64,000 nucleotides of DNA from assembly GCA_964386355.1 (NCBI GenBank), contig CAYLQQ010000001.1, forward strand, positions 12,256-76,255, written 5' to 3'. Position 1 is the stretch's first letter. Each line of letters starts with the position of its first letter. The notes under the pieces were generated by a model. The model saw nothing but the letters and a program-made list of their open reading frames with translations. It was not told the DNA's origin and searched no databases. A program made the position numbers and the translations under genes. Positions 17,636 to 49,989 of this stretch are shown piece after piece. The stretch comes from an uncultured Pseudomonadales bacterium (GTDB lineage: Bacteria; Patescibacteriota; Microgenomatia; UBA1400; UBA1449).

Positions 17636-17662
17636 AGTTAAAATTATAATAAATGAGCTTAT

Positions 17663-31709: not shown

Positions 31710-32168
31710 CTATTCCCCTATCGCCATCCGGTGCATTTCCAGCACTACGATATTCTCACCCATCTTGGCTATAGCGGCTTTAACTAAATCCCCGATAGTC
31801 TGTTTGGGATCACGGATGTAAGCCTGTTCAAGAAGTTCTTCAATAGTCTGAGCATTCATGGAAGCTGTCTGCATAGCAATCTCTTTACACAAAGCCTGGT
31901 ATTCTTCAGTGTTAGCAACAAAATCAGTTTCACAACCGATTTTAACCAGAGCTCCCAATCTTCCATTATTATGAATGTAGGCATAAACTAAACCATCACC
32001 GGTTTGCCTATCAGCTTTTTTGGCTGCTTTTGCCAAACCCTGTTCTACCAGCCAAGCCTTAGCTTTTTCCATATCGCCTTTCGCTTCTTCCAAAGCTTTT
32101 TTTACTTCCATAACCCCGGCTTTGGTTTCTGCCCTGAGTTTTTTGATTTGATCCATTGAAATTGACAT
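31710..32168 (-). CDS. tsf: elongation factor Ts (short form)
   Basis: N-terminal UBA-like motif (IKKLRAETKAGVMEVKKALEEA) and the classic position immediately downstream of rpsB. Only 152 aa. Confidence 0.8.
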   Translation of the reverse strand: MSISMDQIKKLRAETKAGVMEVKKALEEAKGDMEKAKAWLVEQGLAKAAKKADRQTGDGLVYAYIHNNGRLGALVKIGCETDFVANTEEYQALCKEIAMQTASMNAQTIEELLEQAYIRDPKQTIGDLVKAAIAKMGENIVVLEMHRMAIGE

Positions 32169-32970: not shown

Positions 32971-33085
32971 AAAAACCTCCTTTTTCTTCCGATAAATCGG
33001 AACCTCCACATCTTAGGATTGTGTCATACTAATCTCGATTTAGTATAACGTATCCAGGACGGTATAGATGTGTGTGAGTTAAATA

Positions 33086-35924: not shown

Positions 35925-36755
35925 CTATTTAAGTAGATTGTTGATCTGTTGGTTATAATTGATAACAACCTTACGAGATTCCTCAGCAAAGTTATCTCTA
36001 TCAGAAGCAAAAATTACACTTCTAGAAGCATTGACTATAAAATTACGTCCGCGCAATGCGCGCAAGTCATTAATATCACCCCCCTGAGCTCCTAAACCAG
36101 CTATAAGAAAAAACTGATCAGTTGGTGATAGGTCAATGACCCGTTTAAGTACTTTAGGATACGTTAATGGGCATTCGATTAGAATATTTCCTGTTTTGTT
36201 CCAGAAATTGCATACAAGCTTTGTAACGTGTTCATATAGAAAATCACCATTTTTCAAAACCACATCCTGAACTTCACCTGCAGAAGGATTAGAATCGTGG
36301 CATAGTACAAACGCAGCTTTACCCTCGCAATGTAAAAATGGTTCTAATGTATCAAACCCAAACCAAGGGGTAATGGTAAATGCGTCAAAAAGTAGTTCGT
36401 CAAAAAGCTCTCTAGCTACCAATTCAGCACTTCGTTTCATTTCACTTCTCTTGCAATCAGCGATGATTCTAATTTCAGGATAGTTCTTTTTGATATATTC
36501 ATTTGTCTTTTTGAGGGTTTTAATTCCTTCTATTCCGTAACCTGCATAAAACGAGTTATTCATTTTATATAATGAGGCAATATCTGCAGTGCTATCAATG
36601 ATAGCTTTATTGAATATAAACAGTGCTTTTCCAAGAGTATTGTTCTTTTTTACAATGTCCGGTAGTTTTTCATAATCAGAATCTAGCCCAACACAGATAT
36701 GGGATTTTTTAATACTTATTTGATCGGCTACATGTTTTACAAAAAGTGTATTCAT
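35925..36755 (-). CDS. pyrF: orotidine 5'-phosphate decarboxylase (type 2)
   Basis: ICVGLD, IIADCKR (catalytic Lys) and a C-terminal GLGAQGG phosphate-binding motif. Confidence 0.8.
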   Translation of the reverse strand: MNTLFVKHVADQISIKKSHICVGLDSDYEKLPDIVKKNNTLGKALFIFNKAIIDSTADIASLYKMNNSFYAGYGIEGIKTLKKTNEYIKKNYPEIRIIADCKRSEMKRSAELVARELFDELLFDAFTITPWFGFDTLEPFLHCEGKAAFVLCHDSNPSAGEVQDVVLKNGDFLYEHVTKLVCNFWNKTGNILIECPLTYPKVLKRVIDLSPTDQFFLIAGLGAQGGDINDLRALRGRNFIVNASRSVIFASDRDNFAEESRKVVINYNQQINNLLK

Positions 36756-36771
36756 ATTTAGACATTAATAC

Positions 36772-38013
36772 TTAATAATCTAAGTATCTTCCAGAGTCTT
36801 TTTTAGCTTGAATATCGGGCACTGCTTGAGGTGCTAATTTATCCAAATCAGCTTGAATTGGATACGTCCCAACTATTTCTACTCCATTTGCTTCAAAAGC
36901 TGCAAATTTTGTTCTATTATTAGATGCGACTCTCGCAGCTTTTAATCCAGTAATTTGCCTCACAACAGATACTAATTCGTAGGTACGTAAATCTCCTGGT
37001 AATCCCAACTCAGACTCGCGTGCCGTTAAGAGGTCTGTTACTCCACGACCAGTGTATTGTGTCTGGGCAAATTTAAGTGCTAAACCAAGATCCATTCCTT
37101 CTTCATCACCATATATTATCATGCCTGAACCATGTTCTTGAATATACCCCAATGTCTGCTGTAATTGGAAATGGCAATCACATCCATTACCACCTAGTTC
37201 AGCTGTAATACAAGCAGAGTGATATCTAACAACTGGAATAGTGTTGGCAATATCTCCCACACTAAATACGTAATGTCGCTTAGGTCTCTTGTTATAGTCT
37301 CGAATTTCCGATTTTACAGGCTCTTCAATTACTCTTAATCTCGCCGGATTACCACCACGAAACGTTACCGGTATATCGGCAGTGAGAATAAAGGGGCTAC
37401 CCTTCGAACCTCTATATATTTCCAACGCCCTTGGTGAAGCCAGTAATTTATTTCTTGTTGAGCAAGGTCCTGCAAGAAATGGAGAATTATATCTAATATC
37501 AGAAACACCCATGCCCCTTAAAATATCGCGCATCGTTTGAGGACTATCCACTGGGGGTGTAAATGTATCCAGAGAAACATACATTGCTGCAGTAGGGTCA
37601 GTATTGTATAGGCTTTGGATAGCAGTTTCTTTTCTATCTCCACAGCCACAATCTACATCGAAATATCCACCTGGACATAGAGTATCCATTTCAACTAATG
37701 CTTCATTTCGCAACTCAGCTTGAGAACCATGGCTGTAAACAATATGCCGCAATGCACCATAATCAGGGCTATAACTGCCCAATAAATGCATAGCTTCCAA
37801 TTCTCCAGGTTGTGAAGCAACCATTTGCTCACCTCTTGCTAAATAAACCACTGAAGAAGATACCTTCCCAATCAATTCATAGCCTGGAAGTCGAGCAAGA
37901 CCGCTCCGCTGAGCTAACAGTGCTCGTTCGTTAACAACTGCAGCATCTAACAGTCCATTCGGAAATGTTGGCCATTCATACCTACTACCAATATTACCTA
38001 ATCTTTCTGCCAT
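36772..38013 (-). CDS. two-domain protein: a novel 220-aa N-terminal domain plus a GTP cyclohydrolase II (RibA)-like C-terminal domain with a non-canonical motif
   Basis: VRYHSACITAELGGNGCDCHFQLQQTLGYIQEHGSGMIIY parallels RibA VRVHSECLTGD...CDCGFQL...G.GVLLY, with the zinc Cys triad pattern retained. The downstream GDEEGMDLGL replaces the RibA QEGRGIGL motif. Confidence 0.55.
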   Translation of the reverse strand: MAERLGNIGSRYEWPTFPNGLLDAAVVNERALLAQRSGLARLPGYELIGKVSSSVVYLARGEQMVASQPGELEAMHLLGSYSPDYGALRHIVYSHGSQAELRNEALVEMDTLCPGGYFDVDCGCGDRKETAIQSLYNTDPTAAMYVSLDTFTPPVDSPQTMRDILRGMGVSDIRYNSPFLAGPCSTRNKLLASPRALEIYRGSKGSPFILTADIPVTFRGGNPARLRVIEEPVKSEIRDYNKRPKRHYVFSVGDIANTIPVVRYHSACITAELGGNGCDCHFQLQQTLGYIQEHGSGMIIYGDEEGMDLGLALKFAQTQYTGRGVTDLLTARESELGLPGDLRTYELVSVVRQITGLKAARVASNNRTKFAAFEANGVEIVGTYPIQADLDKLAPQAVPDIQAKKDSGRYLDY

Positions 38014-38019
38014 ACTTAC

Positions 38020-38044
38020 AAAAAACCAACCTTTCGGTTGGTTT
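38020..38044 (-). promoter_or_regulatory. hairpin CCAACC-GAAA-GGTTGG, then U6, then GUAAGU-AUG, abutting the start codon of the RibA-like gene
   Basis: Perfect 6-bp stem (38026-38031 and 38036-38041) with a GNRA-type loop. The T run is 6 nt from the ATG at 38013 and there is no SD. Confidence 0.5.
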
Positions 38045-38215
38045 AATTTACATTGTTAATATATGCTTTCCCTATACATTGTATACGTGTATGTTGTGAA
38101 CGACTTATCTGATCGGAGATTGGGACAGTTTTTATCATAAAAAAACCAGTTGCATATGCACACTGGGATTGTAGTATAGCAAATGTATATTGGATGTGTC
38201 AAACAGAGGAGATGT

Positions 38216-39733
38216 TTATATGACAATAGAATATCTATCAAAACCAAGAGTCTTATACAATTGTTCAGATCTGCGCCGGTACCTTTCTGCTCCATCCAGA
38301 TCATCTATGTCGCAAATATTAGTAAGCCTATCATCCATGAGGTTTATCTTGTAACCACGCTCTCTGGCTATTTCAATGCCAGCAATAATACCTGTGTCTC
38401 CATTATTTGGTAATTGTAGCCATTTCCGTTTTACTTTGTCAGATAAACCAGCTGCAAGCAATTTACCCTTATTCTGCTGGGTTTCCTGCATCAGACCTCC
38501 TGAAATATAAACTTCATCTATATTTAAAGGCAGACGCATCGCAATATGTCGTCCAAGCCCACAATAGACTGCTGCAGTAACTTCAATTTTGGTTTGAATA
38601 TCGGCAGATGCAAGCTCACTCCAGCTATATGGTTTTCCGGATTCATCATATATTCCTCCTTTACATCCTGGAAACATATCTTCGGGAATAAAAAAGAAGC
38701 GATTATTTGCAAGATTTACTACGCCTTCTCCAGCCCATTCGTCAATCTTAGCAAACCAATCATTAGGGTCTTTAAACGAATGTAATTCTTTTGTCCAAAG
38801 TGGAAATAAAATATCTGTATTTACACTAGCGCCATTTATTTTCTTGTGCTTGCCATAAACATTATAATCTGGGAAAAATGCTCGTGCATAATCATTTGTA
38901 CCATAGTAAGCAAGCTTACATATTGTATCTGCTTCGATATATACTGCCCGTTCAACCTCAAGACCGCTTGAGATAATCTCATGCTCTGCCATGACTTTCA
39001 TTTGATAGTCTCCTGCTCCTCTAGCAGTTTTGCCATTTGGCAGTTGAAGGACTCGGTGCTGCCTCATGTCATATTGATGAGGAAGTAACCCCATAGCCTC
39101 CATTACTTTTGGTAATATGTTATGTGCTACATCCCATCCATAATCTCCACCAATCCATGGTTTCCATTCATGTTCATGGAAGCCATATCTCAGTCCAGTT
39201 GCAAGACGAATATAAGCTGATATCGCTGGTTCAACATATAAATCACCAACAGTAAGCTTTGGAATACCACTCTCAGCAGCAAACTTATCTAAGTTAGATA
39301 TAACCGTAGCAAAGCGAAGAAGTGGGTTTGTTTTATCTTTCCAATCGTATACTACACCAAGTGGCTTGAGTCTCTCTTTAATATCTGGGCTGATCTTGAC
39401 CGGAAATACAGTTTTTGTTGTTAATCCAATCAAGGGTAGTCCGTATGAATCTGATATGATTAACTGCCTACGATAAGAACCGGTTACTCCAATATCTACA
39501 CCATATGCATCTCTAAGCCAAGGGACAATACTTTCAAAATTAATTGCAGCCACATCTCTATTCCACATATTAACTTTATTCCTAAATCCAGGTATTCTCT
39601 GCCTGCTGCCAACTGCCGTAACCCATTCAGCAGAATAAAAATCCAATTCGTCATCAAAGTTTACATAGCCTGCTGAACGACGATAATTTGTTGAACCAAC
39701 ATCAATAGTTCTAATAATATCTGGACTTACCAT
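38216..39733 (-). CDS. hypothetical protein, possibly an actin-fold (ASKHA) ATPase/kinase
   Basis: N-terminal IDVGSTNYR (phosphate-1-like DxGxT) and C-terminal VYISGGL / GDTGIIAG (adenosine-like and phosphate-2-like). This is pattern resemblance only. Confidence 0.35.
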   Translation of the reverse strand: MVSPDIIRTIDVGSTNYRRSAGYVNFDDELDFYSAEWVTAVGSRQRIPGFRNKVNMWNRDVAAINFESIVPWLRDAYGVDIGVTGSYRRQLIISDSYGLPLIGLTTKTVFPVKISPDIKERLKPLGVVYDWKDKTNPLLRFATVISNLDKFAAESGIPKLTVGDLYVEPAISAYIRLATGLRYGFHEHEWKPWIGGDYGWDVAHNILPKVMEAMGLLPHQYDMRQHRVLQLPNGKTARGAGDYQMKVMAEHEIISSGLEVERAVYIEADTICKLAYYGTNDYARAFFPDYNVYGKHKKINGASVNTDILFPLWTKELHSFKDPNDWFAKIDEWAGEGVVNLANNRFFFIPEDMFPGCKGGIYDESGKPYSWSELASADIQTKIEVTAAVYCGLGRHIAMRLPLNIDEVYISGGLMQETQQNKGKLLAAGLSDKVKRKWLQLPNNGDTGIIAGIEIARERGYKINLMDDRLTNICDIDDLDGAERYRRRSEQLYKTLGFDRYSIVI

Positions 39734-39758
39734 AAAAAAACCAACCCTATGGTTGGTA
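39734..39758 (-). promoter_or_regulatory. hairpin CCAACC-AUAG-GGUUGG, then U7, directly abutting the AUG of the ASKHA-like gene
   Basis: Same stem sequence as the element at 38020-38044. The T7 run is immediately followed by the ATG at 39733, with no SD. Confidence 0.5.
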
Positions 39759-39844
39759 TAAAATAAATAAGCAAAGAAGATTACAACCCAGCCATATTCC
39801 GGATTTGGATTGTATAAAGATGAAATAGAAGTGTCAATGATAGA

Positions 39845-40618
39845 TTATAGGCTTATGATCCCATTCAAAAGCTTCTTCATTTTTTCACTTTGAGCTTGAG
39901 CATTGGTTACCACATCTGTATGGTCATGTTTGACAAACGCGAGGTTAGTTACACATGACAGGCCTAGCACTTGTAATCCCAAACTGTTTGCCATGATCGT
40001 CTCAGGTACGGTGCTCATCCCGACACAGTCAGCTCCCAATTCAGCCAAAGCGCGCTTGTCTGCAAAACTCTCATAGTGGGGTCCGCGGACATACGCGTAT
40101 ATACCTTGCTGATATCTAATACTGTATTGTTTGTTTACCTCAATTGCTCTATTTTTCAATTCCGTATCAAATGGTTGAGACAGGTCTACAAAATGTGCTC
40201 CCTGAATCGGACTTTGGCAAAAAAGAGTGAGAATATCGTCTAAAATAACAATATCTCCCACCTGATATTCACCGTTTAAGCCGCCTGATGCAGAAGTTAT
40301 AACTACCTGTTTAACCCCTAATTGTGCGAATGCCTGAATAGGTCGGGTAACTTCCTCACTCGTATATCCTTCATAGGTGTGAAATCTTCCCGCCATGATC
40401 CAGACTGGCTTCCCTGTGAGTCTACCCAAAATAAGCTCCCCTTTGTGTCCAGCTACACCTGAGCCCTTGCCAAACATTTCATCAAACCCGAAGCGTTTTT
40501 CTACTTCCATATCTTGAACTACATCATTCCATCCAGAACCGAGAATCATGAGAGTTTCTGATCGATCGTCGAAAGAATGTAAGTTATGGATGATTTGTTC
40601 GACAGCTTGTATTGACAT
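39845..40618 (-). CDS. purine nucleoside phosphorylase (PNP/MTAP family)
   Basis: ILGSGWN...GHKGELILGRL.GKPVWIMAGRFHTYEGY...GMSTVPE matches the PNP family-2 consensus. A good SD (GGGAGGTAGGAG) is present. Confidence 0.8.
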   Translation of the reverse strand: MSIQAVEQIIHNLHSFDDRSETLMILGSGWNDVVQDMEVEKRFGFDEMFGKGSGVAGHKGELILGRLTGKPVWIMAGRFHTYEGYTSEEVTRPIQAFAQLGVKQVVITSASGGLNGEYQVGDIVILDDILTLFCQSPIQGAHFVDLSQPFDTELKNRAIEVNKQYSIRYQQGIYAYVRGPHYESFADKRALAELGADCVGMSTVPETIMANSLGLQVLGLSCVTNLAFVKHDHTDVVTNAQAQSEKMKKLLNGIISL

Positions 40619-40654
40619 TATGACTCCTACCTCCCGCTTTCAGACTACCCCTGT

Positions 40655-41260
40655 CTAGAGGGAATTTATTACAAAATATTCGACTGCTTGCCTATCAAAG
40701 CCAAAGCTGATAAATCGCTCTTTGATCTGCTCATCTCCCACACCTTCGCCTTTCCATTTAGGAGTTAGCTGGTGAATTGTTTCTCTAACCTCATAGGGAA
40801 ACACAATCCAGTCACTTGTTTGTATGCCATAGTAATCCGGTTTTATCTTTGAGTGAGGTTTATAAAAAACCGTAGCAGTTTTGATGTGCTCAATTCCTTT
40901 AGCATGCAAGTAGTCTTTTACAAACAACAGTGACTCTCCTGTATCAGCCACGTCATCAAACAGAAGTATATTTTCGCCATTGATATCAACAGGTAACTGC
41001 TGATAGATGATAGGTTTTTCGCAGCGCTCATTCACTCCGCAGTAAAACTTGACCCCGATGCTGGCAACTTCTTTTACACCCAAAAGGTCAACGAGGGAAC
41101 GTGTCATCGGCCAACCACCCTTGGCAAGCGTAACAATACGATCTATCTTGATTCCGTCTGCCTGTATCTGTTTTGCAACCTCAAATATAAACTGCTGGAG
41201 CTGGTCCCAGGATGGAGTCAGATAGCTAATACCGTTGTGAGATGAGTTGGTCGGGTGCAT
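40655..41260 (-). CDS. purine phosphoribosyltransferase, xanthine-guanine PRT (Gpt)-like
   Basis: PRPP-binding motif ILLFDDVADTGESL and the Gpt-like C-terminal WIVFPYE. Confidence 0.75.
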   Translation of the reverse strand: MHPTNSSHNGISYLTPSWDQLQQFIFEVAKQIQADGIKIDRIVTLAKGGWPMTRSLVDLLGVKEVASIGVKFYCGVNERCEKPIIYQQLPVDINGENILLFDDVADTGESLLFVKDYLHAKGIEHIKTATVFYKPHSKIKPDYYGIQTSDWIVFPYEVRETIHQLTPKWKGEGVGDEQIKERFISFGFDRQAVEYFVINSL

Positions 41261-41329
41261 GGCAGGTAAAAAAGTATGTTATGGAGAATTATCATAGGAG
41301 AAAATGAAGAGTTGTGCAAAGGGGAAAAG

Positions 41330-43531
41330 CTAATCGCCACCCTGACGCTTGGCAAAATTGTATGCAGCAGTTACGTAACCACGAGGTCGCGCTGATTTAT
41401 AGGGTGCAGTTAACGAGACAATTTCATCCCATAATATTTTCGAAGCTCTAGAATCAGCTGCTCTTGTATATACATCTTCTGGCAATCCTTTAGGTACATA
41501 CAGCCTACCATTTTTTATGATTAGCATAATCATTTGCTCAGGTGCTTGAAAAGCCAATCGGACTAACGCATTCTTAGCTCCCTCATCTAGTATTCGCAGC
41601 CACGCCCGCGGACCAATACCCCCAGCAATAGGTAGATAGTCATCTTGCCAATAGTTAGCTTGAGATGCATCCATCATTCTGGCTAAAACCATTCCATTAG
41701 ATACAGTCCAATTTCCTATTTGGGGATTAGTTACATCTGGGGCTTTTTTAACATCCTCTGGAGCATAGCCAACAGTGTCTCTAGCATATTTCTTGATTAT
41801 AGATCCTAAATCATTCAGCAACTCATCGCGCGCGCGACCAATCAAACCTAAATGATCAGCTAATGATTCAATAGTATTTCCACCAGCTTGCTCGTTTACC
41901 ATCTGCCTCATATCTCTCCAATCTAATCCTAATTTTTCCCAATATGATTCCCAATCAACATGCAACGGGTTCCACGTAACTACTTGTAGTTGCCTTAATG
42001 CATGGTGTCTACTAGCTGTTTGTTCATCTAGTATCCTAAGCACTAATTGCTTATATAACATTTGTTTATACGGATCTGGTTCAAGCCGATCAATATCTTG
42101 GGTGAGCATACCTAATCTCTCCTCTGGATTTGTAAGTAATCTTACTATGCTTACTGGTATTTGACGCTCAGTGTTGGGATTTTTAGTACCGGTGATTAGA
42201 AAATCTAGAGCTGCACCCCAGGAATCTACATCATGTAAAAAGACATGCATTTGCTTGTCTTGACAGGTATAGGCAATTTCAACTGATAAGCTTCCAAGCA
42301 AACCAGGATCAGCAGCCAAAAACCCTGCCCATAAACGCTCAATTGCCTGTCCTTCTGCTTTAAGTGCTTGTGCAACTGTAAATATAGTTAGCTCTTCTAT
42401 ATCCTGCCTTTCAAGTACTTGATCAATATTCACATCTTCCCAATCTCTAATAACCAGATTACCTGTTGAGTCAAAAACAAAATCTAGGTTTACCTCTTTA
42501 TATGGGGTTCTTGCATGAGCATTGCTTTCTTTTTCACCCTGAACAACGCGATTTGGTTTATCCCCATATACCACAGCTGCTTTGACTTTGAATACTGTCT
42601 GACCTTTTTGGTCGACAATATCTTGCAGCTCAAACCTCATGTTTCCCCCAAGGGTAGATGCCACTGCTTCACTGGCAAAGCCTTTCAGTGCGGTTAGCTC
42701 ATCAGATTTGTGCAGCACAAATACGTTCATGTGATATCCTGGATTACGTCTGATAATTTGCTCTGCCATTTTTTCTAAATATTCTTTTTGTAAGCTTGGT
42801 AAGATTTCAAAACCTGGCAGTGAGCTGCTAAATTCATCCCCTTCTCTGGGGCATAACCTGACATATAACCCATGGCCTTTTTGTGACTCCTCCTCAAAAA
42901 ACCCAGCTAAATTAGCAATTTCTCCTGTTACGGTTTCATAAATTTCTCCTCGCACTCTTGCCCCTGAAACACTTCTAATTGTCTCGCCTTGTTCTGTCAG
43001 AGCATCATTAGTTGCTATTACATCATTAATAACGTAATCAAGAAGCGGATCATGAGTTTGGGCGACAGTTCTCACGAGCCCTCGCTTAAGTACTTTAACG
43101 TGCAGATTAGGACTTTCTGGTGAGGGTAAATGGAGAAGCTCCCTAACCCTTGTCAATAACTCTTTTGGTCTGTTTAAGAGAGGGCCTTTTCTGGGATCTC
43201 TTACATCTATACTTGCTGGAGATGCAAATACAGTGTCAGGCTGTTCATCATCCAAGCTGACTTGCACACCTGCATTAGCCGGCATATCCGTATCTTCATA
43301 TATAGTAGTTTGTTTTCCTGAACCATTCCTACCATCTCCTCTGCCATCAGAAAAACTACCAACTACTGCTACATCGGAGGATGAATTATTACCAGAATAA
43401 ACATAGCGGGGTTCACCGCCAGACTCTCCAATGCAAACTAAAACAGCTTGATCAGGAGCAATTTGTAGATCAGCTCCCTCTTGTCCACTTGAAATAACAA
43501 CTTGTTCGGATACACGCTCTTGATGAGCCAT
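41330..43531 (-). CDS. large hypothetical protein (733 aa) with a G/S/D-rich N-terminal segment
   Basis: Long ORF with no recognisable catalytic motif. Its own extended -10 promoter and a palindromic operator-like site lie upstream. Confidence 0.5.
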   Translation of the reverse strand: MAHQERVSEQVVISSGQEGADLQIAPDQAVLVCIGESGGEPRYVYSGNNSSSDVAVVGSFSDGRGDGRNGSGKQTTIYEDTDMPANAGVQVSLDDEQPDTVFASPASIDVRDPRKGPLLNRPKELLTRVRELLHLPSPESPNLHVKVLKRGLVRTVAQTHDPLLDYVINDVIATNDALTEQGETIRSVSGARVRGEIYETVTGEIANLAGFFEEESQKGHGLYVRLCPREGDEFSSSLPGFEILPSLQKEYLEKMAEQIIRRNPGYHMNVFVLHKSDELTALKGFASEAVASTLGGNMRFELQDIVDQKGQTVFKVKAAVVYGDKPNRVVQGEKESNAHARTPYKEVNLDFVFDSTGNLVIRDWEDVNIDQVLERQDIEELTIFTVAQALKAEGQAIERLWAGFLAADPGLLGSLSVEIAYTCQDKQMHVFLHDVDSWGAALDFLITGTKNPNTERQIPVSIVRLLTNPEERLGMLTQDIDRLEPDPYKQMLYKQLVLRILDEQTASRHHALRQLQVVTWNPLHVDWESYWEKLGLDWRDMRQMVNEQAGGNTIESLADHLGLIGRARDELLNDLGSIIKKYARDTVGYAPEDVKKAPDVTNPQIGNWTVSNGMVLARMMDASQANYWQDDYLPIAGGIGPRAWLRILDEGAKNALVRLAFQAPEQMIMLIIKNGRLYVPKGLPEDVYTRAADSRASKILWDEIVSLTAPYKSARPRGYVTAAYNFAKRQGGD

Positions 43532-43536
43532 AAAAT

Positions 43537-43550
43537 AGAATTTAAATTCT
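43537..43550. promoter_or_regulatory. perfect 14-bp palindrome AGAATTTAAATTCT, 5 nt upstream of the 733-aa gene start codon
   Basis: Exact inverted repeat lying between the putative extended -10 (TGTATAAT on the minus strand, 43601-43608) and the ATG at 43531. Confidence 0.4.
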
Positions 43551-43600
43551 GTGCGTACTTTATCAAAAAGTGTGTGAGAATTACGTTAAATTATTGAAGT

Positions 43601-43608
43601 ATTATACA
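43601..43608 (-). promoter_or_regulatory. putative extended -10 promoter element (TGTATAAT) internal to the island
   Basis: The TGn-TATAAT match reads on the minus strand about 70 nt upstream of the 733-aa gene ATG. No properly spaced -35. Confidence 0.3.
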
Positions 43609-43650
43609 TCTGCTTGTCAAATGAAGCAAAATATTAGAAACACACATAGT

Positions 43651-44379
43651 TTATGTTATCAATTTTCTTCTTTTTATTTCTTTAAGTCTTCGAAGGGAAC
43701 CCATCATCTCTTGAAAGTCTTGCTGAACCAACTCTCTTGCAGTCGCATTTTGTCTTAAAGTAGGTTTTATAGCCATTAACACCTCTGGTCCTGATTCATC
43801 TGGATATAATGGTGCTGTATCAAGACCTACTTTTATACAGGCGTCATAAAATTCATTCATTGGTTGTTCATTAAATCTATTTGGTTCAAACTGATTACGA
43901 AATACTGCTTTAAGAACTCCTCCTGGTGTTAATTTTCTGAATATAGTTTCTATTGCTCTTCTAGGTAATGTACTATACCCCAAAGAATGAACAGCTAAAA
44001 AACAACCTACAGAATTATCATCGTATGGATCTAACGATTCTACTGATGTTATATCTATATTTTCTCTTCCGAAAAACTGTTCATGTTCAGGTATATGAGT
44101 AAGTGCAGTTGCTCTGAATTGTAGACTATGACCTTCATAGGCTTGCGAAAGATCACTTATACCTTCTGATGTTCCACAACCAATATCTACTACTAATTTA
44201 TGCGGAAGTTGTGCAATATACCCAATGGTTGAATCTAGACCCAATAACACCGTAACATACGCACTACCATCTCTATCAACAGTATAAGATTCCTCAGGGT
44301 TATCTAATTCAAGAGCTACCGCTCTAGTTGTTTGTTGAAGTACCATTTCTCTTTCTTGTGGTAATAAGACCATAATCAA
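43651..44379 (-). CDS. class I SAM-dependent methyltransferase-like protein
   Basis: Motif I VVDIGCGTSEG and the spacing to downstream acidic and hydrophobic motifs are consistent with a Rossmann-fold MTase. Substrate unknown. Confidence 0.5.
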   Translation of the reverse strand: MIMVLLPQEREMVLQQTTRAVALELDNPEESYTVDRDGSAYVTVLLGLDSTIGYIAQLPHKLVVDIGCGTSEGISDLSQAYEGHSLQFRATALTHIPEHEQFFGRENIDITSVESLDPYDDNSVGCFLAVHSLGYSTLPRRAIETIFRKLTPGGVLKAVFRNQFEPNRFNEQPMNEFYDACIKVGLDTAPLYPDESGPEVLMAIKPTLRQNATARELVQQDFQEMMGSLRRLKEIKRRKLIT

Positions 44380-44409
44380 TAATTATACAGTATAATCCTA
44401 TATTATTTT

Positions 44410-45720
44410 TCAATTTCTCTTTTTTCTTTTATGTTCAGCAACTCCTGTTGCTCTTTTAAACATTAATTGTAATCTATTAGCTAAACTTTCTTCCAGATCA
44501 TCTACATCGTCTCCAACAAAATCCGTATTAGCAAAACGCTGTACGACACAAGAGCCTCTTTTCTTAACGTCATAGTCAAGCTTATCTAGAGCAGCTTTGA
44601 TTACCCAATATCTATGTGGTGCCGACCCGAGCACGGCCATGTCTTTCATAAACATATATGCAGCATTTGCGGGATCTGCAGCCAAAAGATTATCCACAAG
44701 TAGAATATGTCTGCGTGCAATTGGATGCTCTGATTCAAACCCTCCGTTCGCAAAAGGGTTTATTTCCATTGATAAAATTTCTTCTGGTAACAACGGTGTC
44801 ATGAGAAGTTGGTGTCTTGTTCGAAATACAACTCCCTTAACAGGAGTATCCTCTTCAATAGGCCATATAACCCTTTTATTTGAACCATTCTTTTTGGGCT
44901 TTGATTTTTCTAGAGCAGGATCATATTCGGGCATTCTAAATAAACAGACAGCTTCACCGAAGTTTATATGAACCTCAAATAATGAAGTTGGATCTCTAAA
45001 AAGAGTTGAAAATAATAGTAGTTGTCTAGTTTTTGTCTCTTCTTTGCTTTCGCCTTCTTTAGGTTTATGAAGAGCGGTTATTTGACCTGTTAAAGGATCT
45101 TTGACTGTGACTATTACATCTCCACCTAAAGATAATACATATGGCGATCCAGGTGTATCAGCTACAATACCTGCTCTTTCATCTTGTAAGTTCCTAATAA
45201 GAGCTCGAATGTCCGTGCATCCCTGCATATCCCTAGCTTTAGAATATGCTACTACACCGGCGGCGGCATCAAAGTGATTCAATTCTGCACCCGGTTTACA
45301 TTTAGATCCTGCCACAAATACTCCCGGCGCTAAATAACCCATACCTGCAATTGTGTTTACCACCTTACTTGATTCTCTTTCTGAACGAGCTAGGACTGCT
45401 GCAACCTGGTTTCCTTGTAGTCTTTCACGAACCTGCTCCATCTCAGTACGTACCTTTGGGTCTTTCATTATATGTTCGAGAAAACCAGGTATACCTCGCG
45501 TAACTTCTCTTTTGAATTCATCTAAATCAAAATGTACTATGGGATGCATATCAATCATCTTTATATATGGATCAACTTTTTCTCTAATATACCTAGCTAG
45601 ATCTTTTTCAGGAGATGAACATTGTGCACCGTCAACTTGGGTATGACCGTTTCTATTCTCCCCGAACGCTACAGGTACTGAGTTGCATTGTAATAATGAT
45701 CGTAAGTCAACAGGTAACAT
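44410..45720 (-). CDS. hypothetical protein (436 aa)
   Basis: Long ORF with a basic C-terminal tail (HKRKKRN). No family recognised. Confidence 0.5.
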   Translation of the reverse strand: MLPVDLRSLLQCNSVPVAFGENRNGHTQVDGAQCSSPEKDLARYIREKVDPYIKMIDMHPIVHFDLDEFKREVTRGIPGFLEHIMKDPKVRTEMEQVRERLQGNQVAAVLARSERESSKVVNTIAGMGYLAPGVFVAGSKCKPGAELNHFDAAAGVVAYSKARDMQGCTDIRALIRNLQDERAGIVADTPGSPYVLSLGGDVIVTVKDPLTGQITALHKPKEGESKEETKTRQLLLFSTLFRDPTSLFEVHINFGEAVCLFRMPEYDPALEKSKPKKNGSNKRVIWPIEEDTPVKGVVFRTRHQLLMTPLLPEEILSMEINPFANGGFESEHPIARRHILLVDNLLAADPANAAYMFMKDMAVLGSAPHRYWVIKAALDKLDYDVKKRGSCVVQRFANTDFVGDDVDDLEESLANRLQLMFKRATGVAEHKRKKRN

Positions 45721-45725
45721 ATTAC

Positions 45726-45752
45726 AAAAAACCGCCCTAAAAGAGCGGTTTA
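45726..45752 (-). promoter_or_regulatory. hairpin AACCGC, 9-nt loop, GCGGUU, then U-run, then GUAAU-AUG, abutting the start of the 436-aa gene
   Basis: Stems at 45730-45735 and 45745-45750. The T run is 5 nt from the ATG at 45720. No SD. Confidence 0.45.
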
Positions 45753-45869
45753 TTAATACACAGTATATATGTTTGGTAACATTGTTTGCCAGCCATATGG
45801 TATTGTCTGATACGGCTGAGCCTATGTCAAGCAGAGCTTAGGCTTATAATAACTATCATTCTATAATGT

Positions 45870-46625
45870 TTATTTCTGTTTCATGCCTTGAGCTGTATAT
45901 TGTTCCAACGCCTCTACCGCAGGCTTTCCGCCACTAAATATCACTTTGTACAAGAGGAAAGGATCAGGCTTAATCCTATCTACTAGTGTTACCGGCGTCA
46001 TTGAACCATCTGGTAGCAGGTGAGTGGTACATATCTCCATACTTCCCCTTGTTGATGTAAGTAATTCCCAACCGATATCAGTTATAGGTAATGATCCAGC
46101 AACCTCGAGCACATAACCAGTGTGATCCACTAGACGTTTTGCATCAGCATGGGGAAAGGCATGTAGCTGAGTTTCAATAATTGTTACATCTGTTGTTGGT
46201 CTAAAACCGTTGCGACCAAAATAGGTAGTGGCAGCACAGTCATATACGGTAGTGTCATTATGTGTCAATAATGCCAGTTGTTCTAAAGCTCTTTCTGGTG
46301 TTCCGGGTTTTTCCAATGTTACCCATCGGCCATTAATTAAAACTACCCTCACTGTATCTGCAGTCTGAAATACGCATTCTTCTCCTCCCGCCTCTTTTGA
46401 AGTCAGAATTTGTTTTGCGGCAGTAGCTTTTGCATCTGACATCCATGCTACATACTGAGCTGGGTCGGCAGGCCTGCGAGCTAGTACGTCTTTTCTGATC
46501 CCATATTCATCAAACACGCCTTCGGGTGAAACTGGGGCAAGATGCAAACCAACAGCCCTTGCTTTCCATCCTGCAATAGCAAGCCGATGATGGGCAGATG
46601 TTACTGGAGAGAATTCTTTAAACAT
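45870..46625 (-). CDS. hypothetical protein (251 aa)
   Basis: A/R/G/T-rich ORF with no recognisable motif. Confidence 0.5.
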   Translation of the reverse strand: MFKEFSPVTSAHHRLAIAGWKARAVGLHLAPVSPEGVFDEYGIRKDVLARRPADPAQYVAWMSDAKATAAKQILTSKEAGGEECVFQTADTVRVVLINGRWVTLEKPGTPERALEQLALLTHNDTTVYDCAATTYFGRNGFRPTTDVTIIETQLHAFPHADAKRLVDHTGYVLEVAGSLPITDIGWELLTSTRGSMEICTTHLLPDGSMTPVTLVDRIKPDPFLLYKVIFSGGKPAVEALEQYTAQGMKQK

Positions 46626-46627
46626 AC

Positions 46628-46654
46628 AAAAAACCCGCCTTGAACGTGCGGGTT
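46628..46654 (-). promoter_or_regulatory. hairpin CCCGC, 9-nt loop, GCGGG, then U6, then GU-AUG, abutting the start of the 251-aa gene; a classic intrinsic-terminator shape
   Basis: Stems at 46634-46638 and 46648-46652. T6 is followed by GT and the ATG at 46625. It lies 75 nt downstream of the Gmk-like gene stop. Confidence 0.5.
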
Positions 46655-46728
46655 AGAAATACAATTTTGACTTAAGTTTATAACGCGGTGGATACATGAC
46701 TCATTATGCCTAATGAGTAACTGATACG

Positions 46729-47541
46729 TCAAGTATAAAATTGTTGAGGTATAGCTTCCAAACCGGGACGCACACCTGTATAGCTTGGCATACGAGCAAG
46801 TTCGTTGCGGATAATGTGACAAAACTGAGCTGCTACCACAGGCAACTGACCATCTACATTAAGAAGTACAAACTTTGACAAAGTAACTCCTCTCATATCT
46901 TCATCAATTTTCCTTAAGCGATCTCTCACTTGTTCAGGGGAAGATCCTGGACGATTACGTAAACGGTTCTCTAAAACTTCCTTTGATTCTGGCATAACAA
47001 AAATTGGAACTATTGCTGTATTTCTTAGTATTTGGTTACCTTGCCATAGTTCCAGTACACGCTGTGCTCCATCATGTTCAACCCGCAACACAGAAATTCC
47101 ATTATGTCTTTCTACTCGCTCTAATTCAGTAAAACTTGTACCCTTAAAATCATCAACTCCATAAGGTATATGTTCAACAAATTTGTGATTTACTATCATT
47201 TGTCCAAATGTTTCCTTATTAACAAAATGGTAATGTACCCCGTCAATCTCGCCCGGCCTTGTTTTACGCGTTGTATGAGTGACAATCCGTTGCAACAATC
47301 CTCGTGACTCAAGTTGTTCGAGAATCCCATCTTTTCCGGCTCCTGATAATCCCATGAGAATAACCATTAATGAATGGGCGAAAGTTAATCGCTCTGGAGT
47401 ATTAAGTTCACTACTTGAAACTCTATATACATACGGTATCTCAAAAGATAAACCCACTCCTTGGTCTTCAACTTGCATTTCATACCAGGTTTGAAACTGA
47501 GTAATAACGTTTGGTACTCTTGGTACTCTTTCTTGAGACAT
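46729..47541 (-). CDS. guanylate kinase-like P-loop kinase with a 60-aa N-terminal extension
   Basis: ILMGLSGAGKDG (P-loop), then RIVTHTTRKTRPGEIDGVHYHFV...HIPYGVDDFKGTS, parallels Gmk (SGPSGAGK...TTR.PRPGE.DG.DY.FV...Y.GT). Confidence 0.6.
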   Translation of the reverse strand: MSQERVPRVPNVITQFQTWYEMQVEDQGVGLSFEIPYVYRVSSSELNTPERLTFAHSLMVILMGLSGAGKDGILEQLESRGLLQRIVTHTTRKTRPGEIDGVHYHFVNKETFGQMIVNHKFVEHIPYGVDDFKGTSFTELERVERHNGISVLRVEHDGAQRVLELWQGNQILRNTAIVPIFVMPESKEVLENRLRNRPGSSPEQVRDRLRKIDEDMRGVTLSKFVLLNVDGQLPVVAAQFCHIIRNELARMPSYTGVRPGLEAIPQQFYT

Positions 47542-47595
47542 AACCGAAGAATTATACCAGAGAGAGAAGAAATATTCAGAGAGGAAGTAGTATGT

Positions 47596-49032
47596 TTAGA
47601 GTAAGCCTTTTTGTTTGATCTGTTTTATTATCTGTTGATGAACTTCTTCGATAGTCTTTGAAGCATCTACGACAATCCAACGTCCGTGGTCGTTACGCTT
47701 TGCTAGTTTAAGGTAACCGGCACGTACTTTGTCGTGAAAATCTTTTTGTTCCAGATCCAAACGATTCATCACTTCGGAAGCACTCCTTCGAGCTAGACCT
47801 AGCTCTGACTTAATATCCAAAAGCATCGTCAGATCAGGATACAGGTTTTGTGTGGAAATATTATTCAGCTGTTCAATCAGGTCTTCTCCAAAGCCCCGTA
47901 CTATTCCTTGATAGACTACGGATGAGTCTCTTGTGCGGTCACACAAAACCACCTTACCTGTTTCTAGAGCTGGAATGATCAACTCCTGATAAATCTGTGC
48001 CCGAGCTGCCTGGAATAACAAAACTTCAGTCCCAAATGCCATACCAGTATTTTTTGTATGTAAGACAATTTCTCTGATTTGCTCAGAAATTGCCGTACCC
48101 CCTGGTTCTCTGGTGATAAGTACTTCTTTGCCTGTTTTGATTAACAAATCTGCCAATAGTTTTATCTGGACTGTTTTACCAGCCCCTTCTCCACCTTCAA
48201 ACGATATAAGAAGGCCTTTTTTATTAATTTTCTTTTGAGCAACATGATGTAAACCATTGATAGATGAAAAGTGGTGTTTTTCGCATTTGGGGAAATAGTT
48301 ATATGACACTTTACCAACCAGCATGAGCGCGTCAGAGTTAAACGATGCCGGCTTATCATCCAGATTAAGCTGGGTAAAGATAGCCGGATTCTGACATTGA
48401 GGTTCGCTACAGCGGGCAGAAAGCACCAGCATCAGGTCAGCGTGGCCAAATAAGGCTCTGTTGTTTTCCCATTGAATCCGTTTATATGAAAAATCAAGTC
48501 CGGCAATAACTAAAGTTATTCTTTTTTCATTAATAATTTTTATTAAAGATCGAAACTCGGAAGCATCAACCTTAGCTCTATCACAAAAGTGCCATTCATC
48601 AATTAACACAACTGTCCCTGGCTTGACATCGTGTAAATAAGTTTCTAGATCACTGAGGTCTTTATACACTTGAGCCGGGTATTCCTTACCGGAGCCCCAT
48701 GATTTTATGACAGCCTTATCACTCGTACGCTGCATATCCTTCTGATGTGTAAAGGCTTGTATACGTAATTTTTTTACTGAGGAAAGTAGTAGTAACAGGG
48801 CAGTTTTTCCCGATCCCATAGGCCCACAAATACCGATAATTCCCCCGTTTGGATGAGCCTCTATATAGTCGATTATCCGTTTAAGTGCCGGGAAGTGGTG
48901 TTGGTTATAGCCTTTCTGTTTACTTTCAGATGGGTCAGAATACCAGTAGGCTTTGCTTTTTCCAACTGTAAGTGTGGAAACAGGGTACGGAATAAGATCT
49001 TTGTTCTGGTCATTTACAGCTATTTCAGACAT
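47596..49032 (-). CDS. bifunctional fusion: N-terminal thymidine kinase-like domain plus C-terminal thymidylate kinase domain
   Basis: TK-like: GICGPMGSGKT, VLIDEWHFC, AGLDFSYKR, and a zinc ribbon CSEPQC...PKCEKHH. TMPK: LISFEGGEGAGKT, ITREPGGT, LLFQAARAQIY...VLCDRTRDSSVVYQG. Confidence 0.75.
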   Translation of the reverse strand: MSEIAVNDQNKDLIPYPVSTLTVGKSKAYWYSDPSESKQKGYNQHHFPALKRIIDYIEAHPNGGIIGICGPMGSGKTALLLLLSSVKKLRIQAFTHQKDMQRTSDKAVIKSWGSGKEYPAQVYKDLSDLETYLHDVKPGTVVLIDEWHFCDRAKVDASEFRSLIKIINEKRITLVIAGLDFSYKRIQWENNRALFGHADLMLVLSARCSEPQCQNPAIFTQLNLDDKPASFNSDALMLVGKVSYNYFPKCEKHHFSSINGLHHVAQKKINKKGLLISFEGGEGAGKTVQIKLLADLLIKTGKEVLITREPGGTAISEQIREIVLHTKNTGMAFGTEVLLFQAARAQIYQELIIPALETGKVVLCDRTRDSSVVYQGIVRGFGEDLIEQLNNISTQNLYPDLTMLLDIKSELGLARRSASEVMNRLDLEQKDFHDKVRAGYLKLAKRNDHGRWIVVDASKTIEEVHQQIIKQIKQKGLL

Positions 49033-49056
49033 ACATGGTTAAGTATATTCATTTTC

Positions 49057-49989
49057 TTACATTTGTAAAACGGCTGATTGCCGGTGATGTGCTGCATTGG
49101 GGACAAGTACACGAGCCTGTGAATTCTCTGGTGTGCGTAATTCGTTGACCCAGTCCATAAACTGTTTCCATGTAGGGTCTCCGCGCCATCCACTGGCTGC
49201 AAAATCAATCCACAACTGTCCTGTAATATCAAATACCCAGTCAATATTAGGCACACCCCTGAGGTGACGCTGGATATTTGTGTCAATATCAATCCCTCCA
49301 TTTAAATAAGCTCTGTGAATCTCTTCAGAATGTAAGATTGCCCCACAGGCTTTGCGTTTATAAGCAATGAGGGTATCAACAAGGCGGCTAAACGGCATCT
49401 GTTTTTGTTGACTGAGGAAATCGTCCCATGTTAGTTGGAGCAAGCTATGTACCTTGGTGGTAATCCGAGGTAGGCCATCAACGGGACTGTATGCACCCGC
49501 AGACGTAGCCATGAGCACTTCAATGGCATTGCTGGTAAGCTGCGTCTCAACCATGAGAGCAGTCTCAGCCTCATCCCTTGGTTTAAACAAGACTGCCGAG
49601 CCATTATCCTGATATGCAACTACAACCATATCTTTTGCAATTTCCGGAACTACCAAGCCTTGTGCCATCTGCCCAAGCATTTGAGGTTGCTCAAGCTGGC
49701 TATGTAGACTGCTGGCTACTTTTGAAGCTGCCAACATTTGTGTAAACCAGTTGGGTAGCCACTCTGTATTGCGTGCTTCCACCAGCATCACCCGCTCGTT
49801 AGGATGCGTATGCATCCCAAGTGACTCTCTAAGCGCTACTTGAATAGCGTACTCATCATAACAGGAAGGCAAAGGTTGAGAGGGAATGCCAAACTGCTCA
49901 AAGTAATCCTTAAAAACGGGCTGAACGCCCCCTTCTCCATTTCGCATGGACATGTGGGGGAACGCAAACTCAATATCAGGCTTCGGCAT
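49057..49989 (-). CDS. hypothetical protein (310 aa), first gene of the island array
   Basis: ORF with no recognisable motif. A 109-nt intergenic region lies upstream. Confidence 0.45.
   Translation of the reverse strand: MPKPDIEFAFPHMSMRNGEGGVQPVFKDYFEQFGIPSQPLPSCYDEYAIQVALRESLGMHTHPNERVMLVEARNTEWLPNWFTQMLAASKVASSLHSQLEQPQMLGQMAQGLVVPEIAKDMVVVAYQDNGSAVLFKPRDEAETALMVETQLTSNAIEVLMATSAGAYSPVDGLPRITTKVHSLLQLTWDDFLSQQKQMPFSRLVDTLIAYKRKACGAILHSEEIHRAYLNGGIDIDTNIQRHLRGVPNIDWVFDITGQLWIDFAASGWRGDPTWKQFMDWVNELRTPENSQARVLVPNAAHHRQSAVLQM

Follow-up and report, generated by a model that had tools for sequence, protein, structure and literature searches.

Eleven consecutive genes on the minus strand, at positions 36772-49989 of a 64,000-nt stretch of contig CAYLQQ010000001.1 (assembly GCA_964386355.1; the whole stretch is termed the window below), encode nucleoside- and nucleotide-handling enzymes next to proteins of no recognisable family. 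The locus raises the question of whether this array is an inserted island encoding one pathway to a modified nucleotide, as the original prediction proposed from the DNA letters, or a resident part of the chromosome. The evidence favours the second answer. Probably, if by no means certainly, the array is a native nucleoside/nucleotide-salvage neighbourhood located in a plasticity zone between an S9 hydrolase/thymidine kinase-thymidylate kinase (TK-TMK) border and a TraG-like-rpsB-tsf border, neither acquired as a unit nor organised as a single operon, in an uncultured and probably host-dependent small-genome bacterium. The 11 open reading frames (ORFs; 201-733 aa) are separated by gaps of 16-202 nt, in agreement with the earlier description of a minus-strand series with short spacing. 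The array, its pyrF neighbour and the two conserved anchors are listed below.

33086..35923, plus strand: TraG/VirD4-like ATPase (Pfam DUF87 / TrwB_AAD_bind), conserved anchor, convergent with pyrF and followed by rpsB-tsf
35925..36755, minus strand: type-2 orotidine-5'-phosphate decarboxylase (PyrF), 276 aa, 16 nt downstream of the RibA-like gene; TIGR02127 pyrF_sub2 185.3 bits, cut-off 110.6
36772..38013, minus strand: two-domain GTP-cyclohydrolase-II-family (RibA-like) protein, 413 aa; Cys-rich N-terminal domain (~1-240) without family, GTP cyclohydrolase II (GCH II) catalytic domain at 243-390
38216..39733, minus strand: highly divergent FGGY-fold (ASKHA) kinase-like protein, 505 aa, directly following PNP; assigned by AlphaFold2 model and Foldseek
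39845..40618, minus strand: purine nucleoside phosphorylase (PNP), 257 aa; NF006054 equivalog 249.4 bits, cut-off 218
40655..41260, minus strand: type-I phosphoribosyltransferase (PRT), HGPRT/XPRT-like, 201 aa; Pfam Pribosyltran 4e-19
41330..43531, minus strand: orphan ORF, 733 aa, directly upstream of PRT
43651..44379, minus strand: class-I S-adenosylmethionine (SAM)-methyltransferase-like protein, 242 aa (240 aa in the source-contig gene call); Pfam Methyltransf_11 4.8e-7, 30.8 bits, cut-off 21.2
44410..45720, minus strand: orphan ORF, 436 aa, without family or PDB match
45870..46625, minus strand: divergent Maf-like protein, 251 aa; Pfam Maf 1.1e-9, 38.6 bits, cut-off 27
46729..47541, minus strand: guanylate-kinase-like (Gmk-like) protein, 270 aa, with a ~55-aa N-terminal extension; Pfam Guanylate_kin 2.5e-25, 89.7 bits, cut-off 25.2
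47596..49032, minus strand: TK-TMK fusion, 478 aa; Pfam TK at residues 65-254 (4e-13), Thymidylate_kin at 278-468 (1e-47)
49057..49989, minus strand: orphan ORF, 310 aa, between the S9 hydrolase and TK-TMK
50099..51190, minus strand: membrane-anchored S9-type alpha/beta hydrolase, conserved anchor; Pfam Peptidase_S9 4e-12, N-terminal hydrophobic segment

Conserved frame and variable gene content

Related loci, designated L002 to L014, share the frame of this region and differ in what it encloses. The TraG-like gene, 64-75% identical to that of the window, occupies the same position in L002, L004, L007, L010, L012 and L014, and the S9 hydrolase is 62% identical in L010 at the same relative position. 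The content between these anchors ranges from one to ten genes. In L004, L007 and L002 the order is large orphan-PRT-PNP-RibA-like-pyrF, convergent TraG-like gene and rpsB-tsf, which is the arrangement of the window minus the kinase gene. L012 displays three small ORFs-Maf-PRT-GIY-YIG-PNP-FGGY-like kinase-61-aa ORF-TraG-like and L014 displays PNP-kinase-69-aa ORF-TraG-like, both without RibA-like and pyrF at this position. The order in L010 is ribonucleotide reductase (RNR)-ThyA-S9 hydrolase-unknown-TK-TMK-unknown-TraG-like-rpsB; here a single unrelated 351-aa gene fills the interval from TK-TMK to the TraG-like gene, which holds ten genes in the window. Most relatives are known from short contigs only, and the absences reported here and below apply within those contigs. 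The array genes are thus retained as subsets, namely PRT-PNP-RibA-like-pyrF (L004/L007), (Maf)-PRT-PNP-kinase (L012/L014) and TK-TMK alone (L010), and the array was not found as one present-or-absent block, since relatives hold different subsets at the same site.

The conserved anchors and the differing content of each locus therefore describe a mosaic in which relatives have gained, lost or replaced genes between the anchors. Within this mosaic stand a conserved PRT-PNP core, a RibA-like-pyrF pair and a PNP-kinase pairing found in three lineages. Identities between relatives are 64-81% for the TraG-like protein, 67-92% for PNP, 70-77% for PRT, 65-81% for the RibA-like protein and 69-86% for PyrF, against 21-27% for the FGGY-like kinase in the same slot; in the comparison of L012 with L014 the values are 79% for the TraG-like protein, 92% for PNP and 27% for the kinase. 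With respect to the window, PNP is 67-84% identical in L002, L004, L007, L012 and L014, PRT 70-77% in L004, L007 and L012, and the RibA-like protein 65% in L004, L007 and L002. PyrF had been taken as the native border of an insertion, but it belongs to the variable block, as the constant partner of the RibA-like gene. In L012 a 95-aa ORF of the GIY-YIG (homing-endonuclease) type is inserted between PRT and PNP (2922-3209), another indication that the locus is open to selfish or mobile genes.

Composition of the array

An atypical composition had been reported for the array, with a GC content of 42-53% against 32-35% in flanking genes. That contrast disappears when the entire array is measured: GC is 0.406 in the array and 0.402 in the rest of the window, the per-gene comparison gives a Mann-Whitney p of 0.98, and 1-kb windows span 0.35-0.47 within the array and 0.32-0.45 outside it. 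The tetranucleotide distance between the array and the rest is 0.0112, at the top of the range displayed by other 13-kb blocks (0.007-0.0113) and still inside it, while 5-kb tetranucleotide windows reach a maximum z of +1.8 in the array against +2.7 at 16-21 kb. Synonymous codon preferences follow the same rank order in both. Tests of GC, GC skew, tetranucleotides and codon usage thus revealed no foreign signal in the array, and the proposed insertion of DNA of foreign composition loses its footing. Host-like composition, together with a shared frame and variable content, argues for a native plasticity zone rather than one acquired operon.

The reported preference of the encoded proteins for Arg, Ala and Gly over Lys, Asn and Ile survives as a modest shift. 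The median of Lys+Asn+Ile is lower in array proteins (0.138 against 0.189, p = 0.002) and Arg+Ala+Gly is slightly raised (0.198 against 0.173, p = 0.047), and seven of the 11 genes combine high GC at the first and second codon positions (GC1/GC2) with low GC at the third (GC3, 0.17-0.31). The same codon-position pattern, however, is displayed by genes at 1.2-5.8 kb, 22.3 kb and 30.2 kb and is not peculiar to the array, where its carriers are largely fast-evolving or lineage-specific genes. No tRNA and no Rfam family match was found in the window, and no integrase domain (Pfam) in the array or its immediate flanks. The statement that neither integrase, tRNA nor direct repeats mark the borders is accurate for the outer borders, but a 34-nt hairpin-bearing direct repeat (38020-38053 and 39735-39768) lies inside the array and brackets the 505-aa kinase gene exactly.

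Leaders and transcription units

At four places in the array, a promoter-like site is followed by a leader and then by a GC-rich hairpin with a T-run that abuts the ATG of the next gene.

46626..46732, minus strand: promoter-like site TTGACG-18-CATAAT (46732-46703), leader, GC hairpin AACCCGC…GCGGGTT and T-run TTTTTGT, abutting the ATG of the Maf-like gene
45721..45830, minus strand: promoter-like site TTGACA-17-GACAAT (45830-45802), leader, terminator-like 10-bp hairpin and T-run (45751-45729), abutting the ATG of the 436-aa gene
39734..39837, minus strand: post-PNP leader, copy 1; promoter-like site TTGACA-17-TACAAT (39837-39809), hairpin 1, ACCAACC-ATAG-GGTTGG hairpin and T7 abutting the kinase ATG
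38014..38202, minus strand: post-PNP leader, copy 2; promoter-like site TTGACA-18-TATACT with TG (38202-38173), hairpins, possible mini-ORF with IGK core, ACCAACC-GAAA-GGTTGG hairpin and T-run 9 nt before the RibA-like ATG

Judged from these signals, the array reads as several transcription units, at least five, and not as one operon. The single 11-gene pathway that had been suggested is contradicted both by these junctions, of which at least four internal ones carry promoter-like and terminator-like elements, and by the genes themselves, which do not co-occur in relatives. The hairpins before the 436-aa and Maf-like genes differ in sequence from the post-PNP hairpin and share its architecture. 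All four leader junctions lack a visible Shine-Dalgarno sequence, and such hairpin-ATG junctions raise the question of how transcription passes through the hairpin and how translation is initiated.

The post-PNP leader spans ~110 nt and is conserved at the DNA level in every PNP-bearing relative, whichever gene comes next (L004 3866-3985, L007 1781-1901, L012 4040-4157 and L014 228-345, with a homologous leader also in L002). L012 and L014 have it ahead of the kinase gene. In order, the leader displays a -35/-10 pair, hairpin 1, an A-rich linker and the ACCAACC-N4-GGTTGG hairpin followed by a T-run. Against a chance expectation of 0.12, the window contains this last hairpin exactly two times, once on either side of the kinase gene, and each PNP-bearing relative contains it once. 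The consensus fold displays two hairpins, the first with two compensatory pairs; the stem of the second is invariant and thus uninformative on structure, so that covariation lends it no support. A mini-ORF (…[YC]-I-G-K…) has a conserved I-G-K core with synonymous third-position differences and ends 0-14 nt before the terminator-like hairpin. The leader has no match in Rfam.

Leader-terminator attenuators control the pyrimidine genes pyrBI and pyrE of E. coli. The post-PNP leader resembles them in its promoter, its short length and its small ORF ending just before a terminator-like hairpin, and in the window this hairpin lies immediately upstream of the pyrimidine-related RibA-like-pyrF pair. 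Unlike those leaders it is A-rich rather than U-rich and also precedes a sugar-kinase gene. The post-PNP leader may be a new attenuator. Its two copies could explain the mosaic, since recombination between them would precisely delete the kinase gene and generate the L004/L007 arrangement; alternatively the kinase cassette may have been inserted together with a leader copy.

The FGGY-fold kinase downstream of PNP

The 505-aa protein encoded directly after PNP has no match to Pfam FGGY_N or FGGY_C even at E = 0.1 and none in NCBIfam. A full HMMER scan of 1.84 billion representatives returned five remote relatives, likewise without Pfam match, and the six known members of the family are mutually at most 28% identical. 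An AlphaFold2 model built from the alignment of these relatives (predicted local distance difference test score 77, predicted template-modelling score 0.76) was matched by Foldseek to full-length glycerol, xylulose and rhamnulose kinases with E ~1e-14 and template-modelling (TM) scores of 0.55-0.62. Among 138 PDB matches at E <= 1e-3, the top 50 are all FGGY-type carbohydrate kinases or kinase-like proteins. The earlier ASKHA-like assignment was therefore right, and the full-length structural match, at a TM score of ~0.6, narrows it to the FGGY fold. The family invariants D11/G13, G241-D242 and G412-G413 fall at the expected ASKHA phosphate-1 (DxG), catalytic GD and adenosine GG sites, as placed by inspection and not by superposition. 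The protein shares with FGGY carbohydrate kinases (glycerol, xylulose, rhamnulose and ribulose) the full-length fold and a length of ~500 aa, and its family invariants lie at putative motif sites. It differs from them in having no Pfam match, in an identity of 10-15% to solved members and in its position after PNP behind an attenuator-like leader.

The kinase gene follows PNP in the window, L012 and L014 and is not present in the L002, L004 and L007 loci. A random insertion was considered for this gene and rejected because L012 and L014 keep the same PNP-kinase adjacency. In archaea a nucleoside phosphorylase and a ribose-1-phosphate (R1P) kinase form a route with operon-linked genes, and a route proposed in E. 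coli from R1P through ribose-1,5-bisphosphate (R15P) to phosphoribosyl pyrophosphate (PRPP), with PhnN, still has no R1P kinase; the known R1P kinases belong to the PfkB/ribokinase family and not to FGGY (PMC9700705). The window resembles these nucleoside-to-pentose-bisphosphate routes in placing a sugar-kinase gene after a nucleoside phosphorylase gene, and it also has a kinase of the Gmk/PhnN superfamily and a PRPP-consuming PRT. In contrast, no R15P isomerase or RuBisCO was seen, the window kinase is FGGY and not PfkB, and the Gmk-like protein, compared with the E. coli PhnN step, carries the Gmk GMP-binding signature and matches PhnN weakly. Based on fold and gene position, it is tentatively predicted that the FGGY-like kinase phosphorylates the pentose released by PNP, either ribose or R1P, a role that must be regarded as doubtful.

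The RibA-like protein and its link to pyrF

The RibA-like protein has the GCH II catalytic domain and fold at its C-terminus. In an alignment of seven sequences, no variation occurs at the Zn-site residues C268/C278/C280, counterparts of C54/C65/C67 in RibA, or at R343, counterpart of R128, while an invariant Thr318 occupies the position of RibA Tyr105; an invariant Met also replaces RibA Arg94. RibA Arg128 is the nucleophile of pyrophosphate release, and Tyr105 is said, in work of 2005 attributed to Ren et al., to act in ring opening and deformylation. Scores lie below the curated equivalog cut-offs (84.8 against 148 for NF001591 and 71.1 against 205.9 for TIGR00505). Compared with E. coli GTP cyclohydrolase II (RibA, 2BZ0), the protein shares the GCH II domain and fold, the Zn Cys triad and Arg128. 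It departs from RibA through the extra ~240-residue Cys-rich N-terminal domain, the Tyr105-to-Thr and Arg94-to-Met replacements, the sub-cut-off equivalog scores and a constant neighbour, pyrF. Because Tyr105 is replaced by Thr, a non-canonical reaction is expected, and the RibA-like protein probably does not perform the full canonical RibA reaction. A Pfam scan of 49 ORFs of the window, which covered all but five small ones, revealed no dedicated riboflavin gene (ribD deaminase, ribH or ribE), and the sole RibD_C-type match in the window is the dihydrofolate reductase (DHFR) next to thyA.

To UTP cyclohydrolase (PDB 7EEV/7EJ3; URC1-type, ~423 aa) there is only weak sequence similarity, all of it in the C-terminal domain (E = 2e-7, compared with 1e-25 for RibA), with a whole-chain TM score of only ~0.38, and no URC4-type or urea-amidolyase partners were seen for the RibA-like protein. 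In 8/8 loci that carry the RibA-like gene (L002-L009), pyrF is its direct neighbour or lies at most two genes away. The linkage persists where identity has dropped to 37% and where the surroundings are rearranged and include uridine kinase (Udk), amidohydrolase, PfkB kinase or histidine phosphatases. With its two domains and its constant association with pyrF, the RibA-like protein represents a new, lineage-restricted branch of the GCH II family. It is predicted, at somewhat less than even confidence, to act non-canonically on a nucleoside triphosphate, whose purine or pyrimidine ring it would open. A His_Phos_1 phosphatase adjoins the RibA-like/pyrF pair in distant relatives (L005 1957-2748 and L006 6751-7500, 41% identical to each other). 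As a third partner this histidine phosphatase was set aside, being found in L005 and L006 and not in L008 or the window array, and it may be an additional partner of the module.

Salvage enzymes of the array

The domain assignments of the original prediction for PNP, type-I PRT, the Gmk-like protein, the TK::TMK fusion, the C-terminal GTP_cyclohydro2 domain and the class-I SAM methyltransferase were all correct. PNP, PRT, TK-TMK and PyrF belong to the conserved and commonplace enzymes of salvage and pyrimidine metabolism. The HGPRT and XPRT models score far below their cut-offs on PRT, and the TMK domain of the fusion passes TIGR00041 (178 against 83 bits). Orthologs of the TK-TMK fusion are 59% identical in L010 and 45% in L011. 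The second, stand-alone TK that had been noted is present at 17663-18361 (232 aa) and is 27-28% identical to the TK domain of the fusion; the two TK domains are the only paralogs found within the window. An ORF resembling nucleoside 2-deoxyribosyltransferase (192 aa) adjoins this stand-alone TK, the two together spanning 17057-18361.

The Gmk-like protein retains an intact GMP-binding signature, TTRxxRxGExxGxxYxF, and its matches to PhnN are weak. A role as PhnN-type R15P kinase, suggested by those weak matches, was rejected as the main interpretation because the Gmk signature is intact. An 8-mer scan of metagenome contigs found no close relative of this protein. Among the four ORFs described as lacking any motif, the 251-aa protein proved to be Maf-like (38.6 bits against a Pfam cut-off of 27), while the 733-, 436- and 310-aa proteins remain orphans. 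The Maf match begins at profile position 36, and the N-terminal S-x-S-P-R-R motif looks degenerate by eye (FSPVTS). Searched against PDB sequences, the Maf-like protein returned only spurious antibody matches. A Maf-like gene lies directly upstream of PRT in L012, its product being barely alignable with that of the window (E = 0.027).

Orphan genes and the methyltransferase-like protein

The 733-aa orphan found only itself among 5.8 billion proteins and has no Pfam, PDB or viral match. Its slot in L004 is occupied by a 642-aa orphan with marginal local similarity (pairwise E = 7e-4). The 436-aa orphan has no relative in metagenome contigs (8-mer scan), in phages or plasmids (tblastn) or in any relative locus. 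Similarly, the 310-aa orphan lacks matches in Pfam, NCBIfam, PHROG, PADLOC and PDB sequences and relatives in viral contigs, phages or plasmids (tblastn for the latter two), and in L010 an unrelated 426-aa ORF fills its slot between the hydrolase and TK-TMK. A relaxed BLAST of all array orphans against the ORFs of relatives gave nothing significant. The three proteins are lineage-specific genes in hypervariable slots, and no evidence ties them to the enzymes. The methyltransferase-like protein displays a visible motif I (VVDIGCGTSEG) and has no homolog in the loci of relatives.

Seven more ORFs of the window (205-588 aa) have no Pfam match, at 51276-52922, 53502-54911, 1220-1879 and 30152-31126 on the plus strand and at 4989-5771, 22281-22898 and 13459-15225 on the minus strand. 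Orphan genes are therefore common across the whole window and not only in the array. The product of 53502-54911 is a polytopic membrane protein with ~10 hydrophobic segments.

Interpretation of the locus

In the native salvage neighbourhood favoured here, PNP would split purine nucleosides into base and R1P, and PRT would join the base to PRPP to give the nucleoside monophosphate. The Gmk-like and TK-TMK proteins would phosphorylate GMP and thymidine/dTMP, PyrF would supply UMP, and the nearby ThyA, DHFR and RNR would complete the supply of deoxynucleoside triphosphates. The Maf-like protein would act as a nucleotide pyrophosphatase-type cleaner of the nucleotide pool, the FGGY-like kinase would phosphorylate the pentose from PNP (ribose or R1P), and the RibA-like protein would carry out a Zn-dependent hydrolytic ring opening of GTP or UTP with release of pyrophosphate. 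Through the shared post-PNP leader, the kinase and the RibA-like-pyrF pair would be subject to one common attenuator-like control.

Several observations weigh against this native-salvage interpretation. In relatives whose flanking PNP and TraG-like proteins share 71-92% identity, the kinases share only 21-27%, and the Maf-like proteins and large orphans can hardly be aligned, a divergence that housekeeping enzymes would not be expected to show. Between L004 and L007 the large orphan encoded upstream of PRT has 30% identity, its flanks 74-86%. R1P kinases elsewhere are of the PfkB family, and the window already has a PfkB kinase. Family models are also missed by the Gmk-like protein (TIGR03263, 113.9 against a cut-off of 160.45), by the Maf-like protein (TIGR00172, 38.4 against 117) and by both TK domains of the window, in the fusion and stand-alone, whose scores fall below the NCBIfam equivalog cut-offs. 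The N-terminal domain of the RibA-like protein has no structural match and the protein no assignable substrate, three of the 11 array proteins (733, 436 and 310 aa) are entirely unexplained, and the short contigs of most relatives limit every absence.

Recent horizontal acquisition of an island, inserted between pyrF and the folA-thyA-nrd block, would account for the differing gene content between the anchors, the modest amino-acid shift and the 34-nt repeat bracketing one gene. It is nevertheless highly improbable and essentially refuted, as GC, tetranucleotides and codon usage are indistinguishable from those of the host, no integrase domain was found with Pfam in the array or its immediate flanks and no tRNA in the window, PRT, PNP, RibA-like and pyrF sit at the same chromosomal site in relatives with identities matching those of flanking core genes, and the repeat is a duplicated regulatory leader native to the locus. 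A foreign biosynthetic island would be of greater import if true, and it is not supported. Some or all of the genes might instead constitute a dedicated pathway to a modified nucleotide, cofactor or nucleoside analogue, with ring opening assigned to the RibA-like protein, tailoring to the methyltransferase and orphans, and control of the phosphorylation state of the product to the kinases and the Maf-like protein. GCH II homologs start non-riboflavin pathways elsewhere (toxoflavin, URC), the RibA-like protein is not canonical in its sub-equivalog scores, its Thr in place of Tyr105 and its extra Cys-rich domain, a methyltransferase and three proteins of no known function lie nearby, and a second TK is already present in the window. 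Such a pathway is still judged quite unlikely: only RibA-like with pyrF and PRT with PNP (with or without kinase and Maf) travel together, searches of the relatives turned up no homolog of the methyltransferase or the orphans, the array is interrupted by internal junctions of promoter-like and terminator-like type, and its composition bears no sign of acquisition. Comparative evidence lends no support to a special product of the RibA-like protein, the methyltransferase or the orphans.

The uneven rates invite an explanation in which the hyper-divergent genes (the FGGY-like kinase, the Maf-like gene and the 733/642-, 436- and 310-aa orphans) are engaged in an arms race, either as effectors of an episymbiont, possibly substrates of the TraG/VirD4-like protein, or as nucleotide-manipulating anti-phage factors, located in a salvage cluster by shared metabolite pools. 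These proteins stand at 21-30% identity against 71-92% for their neighbours, and the kinase nevertheless keeps its active-site motifs. On this account each of the genes has its own promoter-like site and leader. They lie in a variable zone bounded on one side by the conserved TraG/VirD4-like gene, share a distinct amino-acid/GC3 signature and belong to extremely rare families, with five relatives of the kinase in 1.84 billion and none of the 733-aa protein. The arms-race explanation is considered unlikely, as these proteins have no signal peptides or transmembrane segments, PADLOC and PHROG give no matches for a defence or phage origin, the TraG-like gene is a conserved chromosomal gene beside rpsB and not in an evident secretion locus, and fast evolution and orphans may simply be common in the lineage. 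PADLOC matches over the array are restricted to the TMK and generic P-loop parts of the TK-TMK fusion, so the suggested defence role is likewise not supported, and a PHROG search of the array proteins offers no support for a phage origin. The boldest interpretation, equally unlikely, combines a salvage core (Maf-like, PRT, PNP) carrying alternative cargo behind one attenuator-like leader with a kinase acting as a non-homologous R1P/nucleoside kinase that recycles pentose to PRPP, a RibA-like protein of new nucleotide ring-opening activity, and hyper-divergent members in an arms race with host or phages over nucleotide pools.

For the favoured native neighbourhood, the significance lies in dependence on salvage. 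Small-genome bacteria unable to make nucleotides depend on it, and the layout and control of salvage genes are therefore central to living off hosts. Beyond this, the RibA-like-pyrF branch of the GTP/UTP-cyclohydrolase family could represent a new nucleotide ring-opening reaction, the sugar-kinase-fold protein coupled to PNP might fill the long-missing bacterial "ribose-1-phosphate kinase" type of step, and the conserved leader RNA possibly constitutes a new attenuator. That neighbouring genes evolve at such unequal rates offers a natural example for asking why some enzyme-fold proteins diversify explosively.

Host lineage and other genes of the window

The uS2 protein of the window (32251-33009) scores best against Bacillus, Thermus and Mycobacterium ribosomes (210-226 bits) and worst against Acinetobacter, Pseudomonas and E. 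coli (183-197 bits), and EF-Ts (31710-32168) has only 152 aa. On account of these uS2 scores and the short EF-Ts, a lineage like the Patescibacteria/candidate phyla radiation appears to fit better than Gammaproteobacteria. Patescibacteria lineages commonly lack nucleotide biosynthesis (PMC7304191). The relatives L007, L008 and L009 were deposited as uncultured Gammaproteobacteria/Pseudomonadales, labels that look unreliable.

The remainder of the window is occupied by housekeeping genes, which include those for cysteinyl- and prolyl-tRNA synthetases, RseP, TopA, DprA, a penicillin-binding protein, RsmB and dnaX-ybaB-recR. Further salvage genes comprise the second TK, the nucleoside-deoxyribosyltransferase-like gene, a PfkB kinase, a gene resembling inosine-monophosphate dehydrogenase (IMPDH)/GMP reductase and a nucleoside-type transporter of the major facilitator superfamily (MFS). 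The IMPDH-like protein (3406-4914, 502 aa) displays the IMPDH/GMP-reductase-type barrel only in residues ~253-497, the N-terminal ~250 aa being without family, and shares the Arg/Ala/Gly-rich, low-GC3 signature of the array. It is adjoined by the MFS transporter (2078-3256), which has weak similarity to nucleoside symporters. ThyA of the window (55017-55967) is stand-alone, beside a DHFR that matches both DHFR_1 and RibD_C, while the thymidylate synthase of L010 (4960-6468) is a 502-aa fusion with MtrA-like and pterin-binding DUF4346 domains. More distant relatives (L008 1758-2303 and 6546-8183; L013 1-51) display a DOT1-like methyltransferase domain of eukaryotic type, an argininosuccinate synthase::MGS-like fusion and an AspRS-type synthetase with a B3_4 domain.

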